Below, piece by piece: positions 24,016 through 29,073 of a stretch of 29,717 bases of DNA. How positions within the stretch are numbered: position 1 is the first letter of the stretch; the number at the start of each line of letters is the position of its first letter. The DNA comes from Elusimicrobiota bacterium. GTDB lineage: Bacteria > Elusimicrobiota > Elusimicrobia > FEN-1173. The notes under the pieces were generated by a model, which searched no databases, was not told the DNA's origin, and saw only the letters and a program-made list of their open reading frames with translations. The stretch spans positions 2,041 to 31,757 of the forward strand of contig PMLF01000345.1 of NCBI GenBank assembly GCA_003158755.1, written 5' to 3'. The position numbers and the translations under genes are program-made.

Positions 24016-24768
24016 ATGAAGCTGTTCACTTCACCAAAAATGATCTTCTCCTTCGCCCTTCTCCTCATTTTGATAGGGGCGTGGGTTTATTTATCCAACG
24101 GTCCAAAACGCCAAGCTCCCGCTCCCGTCGGAACCGGCCAAGGGCGCGGCGGCGGCGAAAACGGGGGAGGACCGGCCGGCGGTACCGCGAGCGCGGGACC
24201 ACAAGAGGGCGGTGCGGGAAAATCGGGAAGCGCCGCGTCGACCGAAGGGAAATCCGGAGGAACTCCGTCCGCCGCGAATAAAAATAAGGGGGAGGAAAAA
24301 CCCGCCGCCGGTCAGCCACCGGCGGGACCAGCCCAAAGGGCTCCCGAGGGACCCAAGGGATTCCTCGCCCGATTGATGGATCGCATCCAGGCTTTTTTCG
24401 GAGGGGCCGCGAAAAAATCAGGGTTCTTCCAACGATTGCGTTCCTTGCTCGGCATCGGAGGTCCCTCCGCCGCGTCCGGCGGGGCGAGCGGACCTGGCGG
24501 AGGGGGCCAACCCGGCGAGGAAGGAAAGAAACCCGACCAACCCGGAAAACAGAAACCGGGGGCCCCCCCATCTCCTCAGAACGACGTGGCCCGACAGATC
24601 AAGGAAAATTTGGAACAAACGTTGGAACAACAAAAGATGATGCGCGACATGCAGGAGATCCAACGGCAGAACCTCGAGAACATGAAGATGATGCTTCAAA
24701 CGCAACAACAGTTGAGACAAACGACGGACAACGCGCGGATGACGAGGGAAACGGCGAAAAAACGGTAA
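24016..24768 (+). CDS. Hypothetical membrane-anchored low-complexity protein (Gly/Ala/Pro/Lys-rich, Gln/Met-rich C-terminal coil)
   Basis: N-terminal hydrophobic helix; disordered linker; two amphipathic helices; QQKMMRDMQEIQRQNLENMKMMLQTQQQ tail. Confidence 0.7.
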   Translation: MKLFTSPKMIFSFALLLILIGAWVYLSNGPKRQAPAPVGTGQGRGGGENGGGPAGGTASAGPQEGGAGKSGSAASTEGKSGGTPSAANKNKGEEKPAAGQPPAGPAQRAPEGPKGFLARLMDRIQAFFGGAAKKSGFFQRLRSLLGIGGPSAASGGASGPGGGGQPGEEGKKPDQPGKQKPGAPPSPQNDVARQIKENLEQTLEQQKMMRDMQEIQRQNLENMKMMLQTQQQLRQTTDNARMTRETAKKR

Positions 24769-24858
24769 GACGTTCCGTTCGCCCATCAATATTCCTTCAA
24801 TAGAAACGGCACCCCTCGCTTTGCCCCGAATATATTTTACCGAACAAGGAGTTTCGTC

Positions 24859-26706
24859 ATGCCGCATCCCCGCCTCTCCATCGTCAAGGACGACGGATTT
24901 TTTTCCGAAGACGGACAGAGCTTCATCATCTCGCGACCCGACACCCCGCGTCCCCTGGTGAACGTCATTTCCATGGGGAACTACGGAGTGTCCGTGGCCC
25001 AGACGGGCGCCGGTTCCTCGTGGGCACGACGCCCCTCCGAACCCGTCACCCAAGGATACTCCCGATCCACCCGCGACGCGGGAGGCCGAGCGTTGTACCT
25101 TCGCGACGAACGATCCGCCCGGTCGTGGTCGGTAGGCTGGCAACCCCTGCGGGTCCGGCCGGAATCCTACGAATGCATCCACGGCGTCGGCTATACGTTG
25201 ATCAATTCAAAAACGAACGGCATTCACGCCCAATGGCTGATGTTCGTCCCTTTCGAAGAACCAATGGAAGTGTGGCGCGTGCGGATTAAAAACCAGTCTA
25301 AGAAACCTCGAACCCTGAGCCTCTGGACGGGCATCGACTGGGCCGCCGAACCGGCGTCCGCCGCGGACGAGGCCCTCTTCGTCCGAGACGGAGGGAATAT
25401 CCTCCTGGCCAAGGCCTCCCCCACCGTATCCGGCGGAAGGGGAGAAGGCGTTTTTTTCCACGCCTGCCACCTTCCCACGCGAGCCCACGCCCTGGACCGC
25501 CGGGCCTTGTGGGGAGCCTACGGGTCCTCCGAGCAGCCCGAAGCCCTCATGAAGGGCCGTTACTTGGCCGGCCACGGCGATCCGGAGGCATTCGCCAGCC
25601 TCTGCGTGCCCATCACTTTGAAACCCGGCGAGGAACGGAGCGTCCTTTTCACCATCGGACGCGCCGAGACCCGCAACGAAGGGATCCTCAAAGCTAAGAA
25701 GTTCCAGGATTTCGCGCAGGTGGACCACGCATGGAACCGCAGCCAACTGGTCTGGGACAAGTATCTTTCCTCTTTCACCGTCGATTCCCCCGACAAAGGG
25801 TTCAACCTCCTCACGAACACGTGGTTAAAATACTTGGCGTTGTCGCAAGGCGTGTGGGGAGGGCGGGGTCCGAGGGATACCCGGATTTTCCTTCCCCTGG
25901 AGCCATCCCGAGTTCGGCGTGAAATTTTGAACCGCGCCGGACGGGCCACCCCCGACCACACCCATTTCAATGACGTGCCTTGGCCCGTGCTGTTGCTGGC
26001 TTACCTGCGCGAGACGGGCGACGGTCTTTTACTGGCGGAAAAAATCGCTTCGAAGACAACCGTCTACGAAGCCGCCTTGAAATCGGCCCGCGAGATCGCG
26101 GCTGTCCCGGACGAGGAGGAGGTTGGGAGCTCCCGGTTTTTTTCCGACTGGACGGAAATGACGGCGTGGGCCGTGGAAGAGGATTTCCTCCCGGCCCGGG
26201 AAAAGGAAACCGCCCGAAAACTCCGGGCCGAGGCCGAGAAGCGGCCGGCGGCGTCCGGGAAAAACAATGGATCCGCCGACTCCGTTCGGGCGTTGGAAAA
26301 CGCTTGCCGCCGTGGCCTCGCCCAAGAGGCGTGTGACATCTACCGCCGCCTGGCTCCCCCGCCCGTCCGAGGCGTTCCGCCGTTCCTCTTCGCCCCGGAG
26401 ACGTCGGATTCCGGAGCGTTTTCCCCGGCCGCGCTCTTCCGCGCCTGCACCGAGGGAATCCTCGGTCTCCAGCCGGAATGGGGCGGCCTCCGCGTGCGCC
26501 CTTGCCTACCTCCGGGTTGGCGATCGGCGGAGGTCCGGCGGGAATTCCGCGGGACTCTCTTTTCCTTTCGTTTCCGCCGGAAGGCCTCCAAACCGGCGGG
26601 GTTCCAGGAAATCCTCTTGAACGGGAAAATTATTAAGGGAGACGTTTTACCGGAAATACTCGACCGCAAAGCCGACGTGGTCGTCACCGTGGGTCGAGCC
26701 CGATGA
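24859..26706 (+). CDS. GH94 (cellobiose/chitobiose phosphorylase)-like protein with a shortened, degenerate catalytic domain
   Basis: AAGGAG SD; GH94-type N-terminus (PDTPRPLVNVISMGNYG, GRALYLRDE, YECIHGVGYT); linker VDSPDKGFNLLTNTWLKY; C-terminal EGILGL..RPCLPPGW. Only 615 aa. Confidence 0.75.
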   Translation: MPHPRLSIVKDDGFFSEDGQSFIISRPDTPRPLVNVISMGNYGVSVAQTGAGSSWARRPSEPVTQGYSRSTRDAGGRALYLRDERSARSWSVGWQPLRVRPESYECIHGVGYTLINSKTNGIHAQWLMFVPFEEPMEVWRVRIKNQSKKPRTLSLWTGIDWAAEPASAADEALFVRDGGNILLAKASPTVSGGRGEGVFFHACHLPTRAHALDRRALWGAYGSSEQPEALMKGRYLAGHGDPEAFASLCVPITLKPGEERSVLFTIGRAETRNEGILKAKKFQDFAQVDHAWNRSQLVWDKYLSSFTVDSPDKGFNLLTNTWLKYLALSQGVWGGRGPRDTRIFLPLEPSRVRREILNRAGRATPDHTHFNDVPWPVLLLAYLRETGDGLLLAEKIASKTTVYEAALKSAREIAAVPDEEEVGSSRFFSDWTEMTAWAVEEDFLPAREKETARKLRAEAEKRPAASGKNNGSADSVRALENACRRGLAQEACDIYRRLAPPPVRGVPPFLFAPETSDSGAFSPAALFRACTEGILGLQPEWGGLRVRPCLPPGWRSAEVRREFRGTLFSFRFRRKASKPAGFQEILLNGKIIKGDVLPEILDRKADVVVTVGRAR

Positions 26707-27881
26707 AGTTTTCCGACCTTCCAAAACCCTCGGAGGAACCAAGGCCCGCGGGAACCGCCGCGCCGCTTTCGGAAAAAAGCTCCCTTCCTCCGACGGCCTC
26801 GGATCCTTTCAAGGAACTTGAGGAAAAAGAATCCGCTTCAAAACCCGTTAAATCGCTTTCCGCCGCTCCTCCTCCGGCGGAGGAAACGGCGGAAGAATTC
26901 GACCGGAAGGTCCGCGAGGAGTCCCTCCAAGCCACGGAAGTGTATTCCGAGGCGGTTTCGGCGGCGCGCCAGATTTACCGGGCGCTTGAAAAACCTCTGG
27001 AGGTGGAGGGACTCGAAATCCCCCACGAAGCGCTCCGCAAGCTCATGGCCGTGGTGCGCTCGGACAACCAGGAGATTTTGATCCTGGCGGACCGGTCCGC
27101 CCCCGACAATTATTTGTACGGCCACGTGGTCAACGTGGCCGTCTTCAGCCTGCGCCTCGGCCTGAGCGTGGGCCTGACCGAAGAGGAAATGTTGACCGTG
27201 GCCGCGGGAGCCTTCCTTCACGACATCGGCATGATCCCTTATCTTCCGATGGTCCTCCGGCCCACGCGGCTGTCGGAGGACGAATTAAAGCAAGTCCAGC
27301 GACACTCGGAGGAAGGCGCGCAGCTCCTCACCAAGTTCCCGTCCCTCCAAGGGCGCGACTTGGAGGTCGTCTCCTCCATCGTCGTCCAAGTGCATGAACG
27401 CATGGAGGGAATGGGGTATCCCCAGGCCCTGGGACAAGACGCCATCCACCGCTTGGCCAAGCTCGTCGGAGTCTGCGACATGTACGAGTCCCTGACCCAC
27501 ATGCGCGCCTGGCGGTCGCGGCTTTTGCCCCACCACGTCCTGAGGGTTATGATCGAGGAACACGAGCGCACCTTCGAGCCGGGGCTCGTGAAGTCCCTGG
27601 TCGAGGCGTTATCCCTTTATCCGCCCGGATCCTTCGTCCGGCTTTCATCGGGCGACATCGGGCGCGTGGTGGCCGTCAACCACGGTCTCCCGACCCGTCC
27701 GATCGTGAAAGTGTTGGTGGACGCCCAGGGCCAGCGCGTGGCGGCTCCCAAGGTCGTCAACCTGGCGACCCACCCCATCCTGTACGTTTCGGACGCCGTC
27801 GATGAGACCAAGCTGCCCACGTCGGACCAGCGCCTTCTGCTGGAACTTCGCGCGCAACGATGGTGGGTGCGCGGTTTCTGA
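26703..27881 (+). CDS. HD-GYP domain protein (atypical metal site) with a C-terminal extension
   Basis: YLYGHVVNV, LHDIGM, HSEEG, QVHERMEGMGYP and CDMYESL motifs, YPPGSFVRLSSG extension; ATGA overlap with the GH94-like gene. Confidence 0.88.
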   Translation: MKFSDLPKPSEEPRPAGTAAPLSEKSSLPPTASDPFKELEEKESASKPVKSLSAAPPPAEETAEEFDRKVREESLQATEVYSEAVSAARQIYRALEKPLEVEGLEIPHEALRKLMAVVRSDNQEILILADRSAPDNYLYGHVVNVAVFSLRLGLSVGLTEEEMLTVAAGAFLHDIGMIPYLPMVLRPTRLSEDELKQVQRHSEEGAQLLTKFPSLQGRDLEVVSSIVVQVHERMEGMGYPQALGQDAIHRLAKLVGVCDMYESLTHMRAWRSRLLPHHVLRVMIEEHERTFEPGLVKSLVEALSLYPPGSFVRLSSGDIGRVVAVNHGLPTRPIVKVLVDAQGQRVAAPKVVNLATHPILYVSDAVDETKLPTSDQRLLLELRAQRWWVRGF

Positions 27882-27887
27882 TATAAT
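27879..27887 (+). promoter_or_regulatory. Consensus extended -10 promoter for nspC
   Basis: TG-A-TATAAT overlapping the HD-GYP stop codon; ATG at 27922. Confidence 0.65.
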
Positions 27888-27921
27888 TCCCCCGGAAAAA
27901 TTCAACGCCGGGGAAAACCGC

Positions 27922-29073
27922 ATGCCGTCCGCCGAGGATTCCATTCATGAGATCGCCCTGAAAAACCGGGGCTCCCTGCCGACGCCCTATTACCTCGTCG
28001 ATGAAAATCGCCTTCTCCTAAACTTAGAGAAAATTAAAAAAGTCCGGGAAACGTCCGGGGCGAAATCCGTTTTAGCGCTCAAATGCTTTTCGACTTGGAG
28101 CGTTTTCGACCTGATGCGGGAGTACATGGACGGGACCACCAGCAGTTCCCTCTACGAAGCGCGGCTGGGACGGGAAAAGTTCGGCAAGGAAGTCCACGCC
28201 TACAGCGTCGGTTATTCCGACGGGGACGTCGACGCCTTGCGCGGGATCGCCACCAAGGTGATCTTCAATTCGGTGTCCCAACTCAAACGGTTCCATCCGA
28301 AAGTCAAAGGACTTCCGTTGGGGCTGCGCATCAACCCGGGCGTGAGCTTTTCCGATTTCGAATTGGCGGACCCGGCCCGGCCCCACTCGCGCCTGGGCGC
28401 GGCGGACTTCGACGAAGCGATGGAAGCGTCCTCCCTGATCAACGGCGTCATGTTCCACTGCCAATGCGAAAACGACGATTTCGCCCGTTTCTCCTCCCTC
28501 CTGGACCATATCTCTGAAAAATACGGATCTCTGTTGGAAAAAATGGATTGGGTGAGCCTGGGAGGAGGGATTTACTTCACGAAAGAGAACTACCCGCTGG
28601 ACGCCTTCTGCGGCAAGCTCTCGGACTTCGCCCGGCGGTTCGACGTCCAGGTGTACCTGGAACCGGGGGAAACCGCCGTCACCCGCTCCGGATTCCTGGT
28701 CACCGAAATAGTGGACATCGTCCGCAACGGGGCGGACATCGCCGTCGTCGACGCGGGGGTGGAGCCCCACCTGCTGGATTCTCTGATCTATCGAACGAAC
28801 GCGAAGATGGACCTCCCCGGAGGAGGCGCCCACACCTACATGGTGGCCGGTCGCACCTGCCTGGCGGGGGACGTGTTCGGGACCTACGCGTTCCCCGGAA
28901 AACTCAGCGTCGGGGATCTCGTCGTATTCGCCGATGCGGCGGGTTACACCATGGTCAAAAAGAATTGGTTCAACGGCATCCAGATGCCGTCCATCGTCGT
29001 GCGGCGTCTGGATGGGAAGATGGACGTCGTCCGTCGGTTCACCTACGAAGACTACCTGGAAAATTTGTCTTGA
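27922..29073 (+). CDS. nspC: Carboxynorspermidine decarboxylase
   Basis: PTPYYLVDE, VLALKCF (PLP Lys), TTSSSLYEARLG, SLGGGIYFT, YLEPGE and TCLAGDVFG motifs; adjacent to the partner dehydrogenase. Confidence 0.92.
   Translation: MPSAEDSIHEIALKNRGSLPTPYYLVDENRLLLNLEKIKKVRETSGAKSVLALKCFSTWSVFDLMREYMDGTTSSSLYEARLGREKFGKEVHAYSVGYSDGDVDALRGIATKVIFNSVSQLKRFHPKVKGLPLGLRINPGVSFSDFELADPARPHSRLGAADFDEAMEASSLINGVMFHCQCENDDFARFSSLLDHISEKYGSLLEKMDWVSLGGGIYFTKENYPLDAFCGKLSDFARRFDVQVYLEPGETAVTRSGFLVTEIVDIVRNGADIAVVDAGVEPHLLDSLIYRTNAKMDLPGGGAHTYMVAGRTCLAGDVFGTYAFPGKLSVGDLVVFADAAGYTMVKKNWFNGIQMPSIVVRRLDGKMDVVRRFTYEDYLENLS

Follow-up and report, generated by a model that had tools for sequence, protein, structure and literature searches.

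The GH94 phosphorylases of known structure, among them the cellobiose phosphorylases (CBP) of C. thermocellum (CtCBP; 3QDE/8HO7) and C. gilvus (CgCBP; 2CQS) and ChBP of V. proteolyticus (1V7V), are built from a beta-supersandwich, a linker, a helical barrel and a jelly roll, in this order. In CgCBP, D490 is the catalytic residue, R351, H666, T731 and G732 are phosphate ligands, and R367, D368, W488, Y653, E659, N660 and F664 are sugar ligands (PMC5501786). The conservation of subsite -1 residues in GH94 enzymes has been described (PMC5309861). Replacement of the whole catalytic loop of CtCBP by that of cellodextrin phosphorylase abolished activity (PMC10572201).

Here, we describe P0001, an Elusimicrobia protein which shows the same order of domains as these enzymes. 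Unlike the GH94 cellobiose and chitobiose phosphorylases, it is shorter by ~200 residues and has 10 instead of 12 barrel helices; identity to them is 18-20% over the structural alignment. The gene lies in a window of 29,717 nucleotides, i.e. the whole stretch of DNA that was analysed (Elusimicrobiota bacterium, GCA_003158755.1, contig PMLF01000345.1). Its features are listed in Table 1. We propose, with a probability of about 0.7, that P0001 is a GH94-derived pseudoenzyme kept by selection for a non-catalytic structural or partner-binding role, most likely as a subunit in fixed ratio with the HD-GYP-like protein of the following gene.

Table 1. Features of the P0001 locus; positions are those of the window, residues those of P0001.
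Feature	Residues	Position	Strand	Basis or remark
Upstream 250-aa protein		24016..24768	+	N-terminal TM helix, G/P/A-rich low-complexity region, Q/M-rich C-terminal coil
Shine-Dalgarno AAGGAG		24846..24851	+	7 nt 5' of ATG; read directly
Intact ORF of P0001, proposed GH94-derived pseudoenzyme	615 aa	24859..26706	+	Translation, Pfam, homologues
N-terminal GH94 beta-supersandwich	12-270	24892..25668	+	PF06165, model strands, alignment
Helical linker	272-304	25672..25770	+	Model helices 272-281 and 285-304, corresponding to 290-321 of the intact orthologue model
Pruned (alpha/alpha) barrel	313-534	25795..26460	+	10/12 helices of the intact orthologue; AF2 models on alignment
Site of the lost R..GG..GFRD loop (GGRGPRD)	334-340	25858..25878	+	Alignment
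Site of the lost catalytic loop	416-423	26104..26127	+	8 residues in place of the 31, DWND among them, of the intact orthologue
SDWTE	429-433	26143..26157	+	Within barrel helix 6; LRDWAD is the homologous sequence in intact proteins
Largest deletion site	461-475	26239..26283	+	Stands for ~96 residues: WDGxW hairpins, helices 8 and 9, ENGGxYxH
FSPAA	521-525	26419..26433	+	Replaces TGSAA, the phosphate-binding turn with which the last barrel helix begins
C-terminal beta-sandwich (jelly roll)	537-611	26467..26691	+	Model strands; alignment to solved GH94 C-termini
ATGA start/stop overlap with the HD_5 gene		26703..26706	+	4 nt; ATGA or GTGA also in 6/6 other short-clade loci examined
HD_5 (HD-GYP-like) gene		26703..27881	+	Pfam HD_5 E 9e-20, synteny, alignment; conserved downstream partner

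Descent of P0001 from GH94 is evident from both ends of the protein, where a first-pass annotation of the sequence had recognised a GH94-like beta-sandwich and C-terminal tail. Pfam places PF06165, the GH94 supersandwich, on residues 30-267 (E 3.7e-49, full model 1-251), and residues 525-608 match solved GH94 enzymes at their C-termini (E 1e-10). The catalytic domain PF17167 is recognised at residues 299-333 only, by about the first 35 positions of its profile (2-36 of 420), and scores 16 bits, which is below the cut-off of 27. When the genome is searched with PF17167 in six frames, the gene is not picked up, and NCBIfam returns no family match for the protein. In alignments with solved GH94 enzymes, only residues 12-334 and 525-608 are covered; between these blocks lie ~190 residues in P0001 versus ~365 in the enzymes. 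The barrel is short by ~200 residues compared to GH94 enzymes, and about a quarter of the total length is gone. In the supersandwich, two loops are ~10 aa shorter in the alignment than those of intact orthologues, one of them the REFHRTFIET loop.

The best PDB matches of the AF2 model of P0001 (pLDDT 81, pTM 0.83) are all GH94 phosphorylases, with TM scores of 0.76-0.81 by query and 0.60 by target. Residues 299-535 compare to GH94 catalytic domains with a TM score of 0.77-0.79 over ~230 residues, and this remnant of the barrel is modelled as well ordered. The intact orthologue P0012 is modelled with 12 barrel helices (pLDDT 88, pTM 0.90). P0001 has lost helices 8 and 9 (residues 585-614 of P0012), which make up one alpha/alpha hairpin. 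The model, whose superposition on cellobiose phosphorylase had been suggested as a check, contains neither a complete barrel nor the catalytic Asp. The earlier description of the protein as collapsed is inexact: since ten of the twelve helices remain in the GH94 arrangement and superpose on GH94 barrels, the barrel is pruned, not collapsed.

The missing part is not encoded elsewhere as a separate piece. The genome was searched with PF17167 and with the 261 residues of the intact orthologue's barrel that P0001 lacks; no complementing ORF was revealed, and matches were confined to large NdvB-like frames on other contigs (C336, C271, C27). A split enzyme is therefore ruled out. Open frames of 2860 and 1560 aa on C336 (L001, L002) and C271 combine a GH94 supersandwich with intact catalytic domains, resembling cyclic beta-1,2-glucan synthase (NdvB/Cgs), so that the source genome still has GH94-type catalytic domains elsewhere. 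On C27 (6513-7956) a GH94 catalytic domain extends over two reading frames of 568 and 390 aa (profile positions 1-221 and 247-416), which may reflect a frameshifted gene or a sequencing error.

Losses in the active site were read from the alignment with intact orthologues, with positions taken from the CgCBP residue list. The DWND loop with the general-acid Asp (D490 equivalent) is deleted in all eight short-clade sequences (P0001 and its seven closest homologues, see below), as the first-pass annotation had noted for P0001. SDWTE, which had been considered an ambiguous remnant of this loop, is ruled out as a displaced catalytic loop, as it aligns with an L(R)DW(A)E helix that is present alongside DWND in full-length proteins. 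AFSPAA (520-525) occupies the position of YTGSAA in intact proteins, with TG changed to SP; here the earlier reading was right. At the R..GG..GFRD loop, G335 stands in the column of the invariant phosphate-binding Arg (R351 equivalent) and R336 is one residue out of register. G-P-R339-D340 falls under L-Q-D of FRDQLQD in a single-gap alignment whose gap placement is ambiguous. With the same ambiguity, the RD pair (R367 and D368 equivalents) is deleted. The Asp formerly seen as part of a GxRD kept without QD more probably corresponds, under this alignment, to the Asp of QD than to the one of RD. The HxWWHP loop is absent from the short clade according to the alignment, and the EPY..GR..W loop is partly gone. 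Also absent from P0001 is a loop of the N-domain whose counterpart in the alignment is the R166 region of cellobiose phosphorylase.

Altogether, P0001 is without equivalents of D490, W488, R367, D368, E659, N660, F664, H666, T731 and G732. Three of the four phosphate ligands are lost (H666, T731 and G732 equivalents, that of H666 within the largest deleted block), and the Arg equivalent to R351 is displaced by one residue. Every equivalent of a subsite -1 sugar ligand is gone, those of W488 and E659 by deletion. As catalytic, phosphate and sugar ligands are lost together with the hairpin, P0001 would not be expected to carry out glycoside phosphorolysis in the GH94 way, and we infer from the sequence that it lacks phosphorolytic activity.

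The same losses bear on a role in sugar binding, which the first-pass annotation had offered next to a scaffold role. Because every subsite -1 residue equivalent is deleted, binding of sugar at the canonical site appears unlikely. More generally, P0001 could be a carbohydrate-binding or sensor protein which lost catalysis and kept its ligand, in the manner of chitinase-like lectins. Inactive glycosidase homologues that bind ligands are indeed known, e.g. CHI3L1 (PMC12248466) and the GH28 pseudoenzymes (PMC8213348), and the supersandwich and jelly-roll domains of P0001 are intact. Chi-lectins, however, keep their binding cleft, whereas P0001 is without the cleft-forming loops and the subsite -1 ligands. 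Moreover, the protein is predicted to be cytoplasmic, without a signal peptide, and no sugar importer gene adjoins its own. We consider a ligand-binding role improbable.

The short form is genuine. The intact 615-aa frame, its Shine-Dalgarno sequence and its coupling to the next gene, all noted earlier, were confirmed. Sequence of the window is present in at least 20 metagenome runs from peat, permafrost and bog. Independent peat metagenome contigs are identical to the P0001 locus over two deletion sites and the gene junction, which excludes an assembly artefact as the cause of the short form. RNA libraries contain only two short identical contigs (25107-25420 and 25687-25860), for which DNA carry-over is possible, so that they are weak evidence of transcription.

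A search of 5.8 billion proteins revealed seven homologues of P0001 with full-length cover, 584-626 aa long and 56-63% identical. They have the deletions, the gene order and the 4-nt overlap with the HD-GYP-like gene in common with P0001. The next matches are ~800-aa proteins with ~40% identity, several of them named as Elusimicrobia. In an exhaustive profile search of 1.84 billion representatives the short clade comprised one 50%-identity cluster and one fragment; it is therefore rare. Invariant positions of the clade include 83 in common with intact enzymes and 26 that are clade-specific, R336, D340, R342, E355 and R359 being invariant; only 5 lie within the 124 residues 401-524.

These homologues allow selection to be assessed. 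Nei-Gojobori dN/dS is 0.21-0.30 over the 15 pairs of six short-clade sequences, most pairs being near synonymous saturation; the least saturated pair (dS 0.28) gives 0.22. By region, dN/dS is 0.22 for the supersandwich (residues 1-298), 0.21 for residues 299-400, 0.45 for the fast-evolving residues 401-524 and 0.20 for the C-terminal domain (residues 525-615). Intact GH94 orthologues have lower values (0.04-0.19). With the caveat that most pairs are near saturation, the short gene is constrained, if somewhat relaxed compared to intact orthologues, and purifying selection has acted after the loss of the essential residues.

A functionless gene in slow decay, with a frame that is open by chance or by recent origin, would account for dN/dS values above those of intact orthologues, for the fast-evolving residues 401-524 and for the absence of the gene from one genome of the same family (G001). 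Against this, all eight short sequences, diverged to dS > 1, keep a frame of 584-626 aa as well as the deletions and the coupling to the start of the next gene, and the six sequences with DNA are free of stops and frameshifts. We regard decay as highly improbable. The earlier view that P0001 is no decaying pseudogene is well founded, and the allele is not a unique decay product.

The origin of the gene can be traced within its order. Among the 16 species representatives (G000-G015), the short form is found in the source genome only. An orthologue is present in 14 of the 15 others, one in each, with an open frame of at least ~770 aa where the gene is complete. Nine of the twelve orthologues extracted have every GH94 motif. 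In sister genera, the chromosomal slot of P0001 is filled by a motif-intact GH94 of 803-814 aa, e.g. P0012 (814 aa, GCA_016722575.1). The order GH94 - HD_5 - ABC - ABC-2 occurs in seven of nine genomes with a motif-intact gene, in most cases with miaA and hflX next; four of the seven have GH35 directly upstream of GH94. Short-clade loci keep GH94 - HD_5, three of them also ABC (-ABC-2). As the neighbourhood is common to both, the short gene is the positional orthologue of the intact enzyme. P0001 and the motif-intact orthologues are ~50% identical in the first 370-400 residues and 39-50% identical in the C-terminal 95-150. In contrast to P0001, these orthologues have all GH94 motifs, GH35 upstream and a gap instead of an overlap before HD_5.

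Other members of the family are degenerate at different stages. The 811-aa form P0100 (G013) has every motif substituted and no deletion. In P0010 (G003, 784 aa), the G014 form (759 aa) and P0101 (756 aa) active-site loops are deleted. P0102 (547 aa, L016 6001-7644) has more helices deleted and is also without barrel helices 6 and 7; it is flanked by a CBS-domain gene and an ABC/ABC-2 pair, with no HD_5 gene there. In a maximum likelihood tree of 590 shared columns, the P0001 short clade is nested within the Elusimicrobia GH94 clade. The degenerate forms make up one clade, nested in the order 811, 784, 759, 756 and then 547 aa, with support of 93/89 (SH-aLRT 87 without the two longest rows), branches being long and attraction possible. 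A single clade of degenerate forms and short clade is thus moderately supported by these sequences. The RpoB tree does not resolve the base of the family; the RpoB nearest to that of the source genome is that of G003, which carries the 784-aa degenerate copy.

Within G000-G015, a GH35 (GlmA-like) gene was found in 8 of 11 genomes with intact GH94, but neither in the four genomes with degenerate GH94 nor in the one genome without a copy; the genomes are related and these counts are descriptive only. The pathway formerly served by the gene, a GH35 + GH94 pair for a cytoplasmic beta-linked disaccharide, appears to have been lost. G007 has an intact GH94 preceded by a GH35 gene (C1:764109-766519; L038 11095-13520) that is split between two frames, the match being interrupted by a TGA; this genome has a second GH35 copy at another place.

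Could P0001 still be an enzyme, i.e. a minimised phosphorylase, hydrolase or transglycosylase whose active site was rebuilt from short-clade residues? Purifying selection could equally be due to such a new function, and the well-ordered barrel remnant would fit it, as would the 26 invariant residues specific to the clade, among which R336, R342, E355 and R359 lie on the first barrel helices. Yet none of the canonical catalytic, phosphate and subsite -1 residues is left, and almost all loops of the catalytic face have gone with them. Conservation is poor in the C-terminal half of the remnant barrel, and the GH35 partner of the catabolic pair was not found in the genome. A rebuilt enzyme seems to us quite improbable.

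The preferred reading of P0001, a pseudoenzyme in a structural or partner-binding role, draws on its neighbour. All seven short-clade loci have the 4-nt overlap of the short gene with the HD_5 gene, whereas genomes with intact GH94 have a gap of roughly 10-170 nt between the two. The HD_5 protein is itself degenerate family-wide. HHE is changed to VHE, SHE or CHE everywhere (window and L032-L042 orthologues), the HD dyad is ND, NE or SE in G006, G007, G008 and G009, and GYP is kept. Its C-terminus LELRAQRWWV(R/K)G(F/L) is invariant in most members, and its dN/dS is 0.12-0.23. There is no adjacent HD_5 gene in four other degenerate lineages (G013, G014, P0101, P0102). HD_5 orthologues also occur unlinked to GH94, including in a genome without any GH94, so that a strict co-dependence of the two is not supported. 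A partner or scaffold role of P0001 is suggested by the gene coupling, which makes the scaffold proposed in the first-pass annotation plausible.

The protein encoded upstream (Table 1) belongs to no Pfam family; it is found directly upstream of most short-clade loci with 40-54% identity. Downstream, the listed start of an Orn/DAP-decarboxylase-like ORF (27802-29073) overlaps the HD_5 gene by 80 nt. Homologues begin to align at residue 36, which puts the probable true start at ~27907. This ORF and the next, saccharopine-dehydrogenase-like gene resemble a pair of the carboxy(nor)spermidine pathway.

We suggest the following course of events. P0001 descends from a GH94 disaccharide phosphorylase, and both position and phylogeny make it the orthologue of the motif-intact 803-814-aa gene that sister genera within its Elusimicrobia family carry. 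It has lost the DWND loop, three phosphate ligands, the subsite -1 ligands, one alpha/alpha hairpin and the R166-region loop. The supersandwich, the linker, a ten-helix barrel stump and the C-terminal jelly roll remain, and would be retained by selection for a non-catalytic, structural or partner-binding role; in the most likely version, P0001 would be a subunit made in a fixed ratio with the HD-GYP-like protein, whose gene it overlaps by 4 nt. A further-reaching proposal is that GH94 was inactivated once in one Elusimicrobia family and then miniaturised stepwise under selection (811 to 784-756 to 615/547 aa), and that it forms, with the translationally coupled and equally degenerate HD-GYP-like protein, a new signalling or scaffolding module of two pseudoenzymes. 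This we put forward tentatively, as rather unlikely in its entirety.

GH94 proteins are annotated automatically as cellobiose phosphorylase, and JGI gives this name to two short-clade members. Metabolic reconstructions of peat Elusimicrobia would wrongly credit such members with phosphorolytic use of disaccharides. Our literature search found no GH94 pseudoenzyme, nor a pseudo-glycosidase with a fold that was cut down stepwise. P0001 suggests that the supersandwich and jelly-roll modules of GH94 have a function independent of the active site. With orthologues that are intact, substituted, loop-pruned or helix-pruned, this one family offers a natural experiment in the dismantling of an (alpha/alpha)6 enzyme of which a part remains useful.

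The known systems close to P0001 also include the other degenerate members of its clade (P0100 in G013, P0010 in G003, the G014 form, P0101 and P0102), which are likewise without DWND and other motifs. They differ from it in their stage, from substitutions only over deleted loops to the more extensively deleted barrel of P0102, and mostly have no adjacent HD_5. Outside GH94, P0001 resembles the chitinase-like lectins (CHI3L1) and the pseudo-polygalacturonases of GH28 in beetles, which also descend from glycosidases, have lost catalytic residues and are kept by selection (PMC12248466, PMC8213348). These pseudoenzymes, however, keep a fold of full size and usually the binding cleft, whereas in P0001 the cleft is excised and the fold is reduced.
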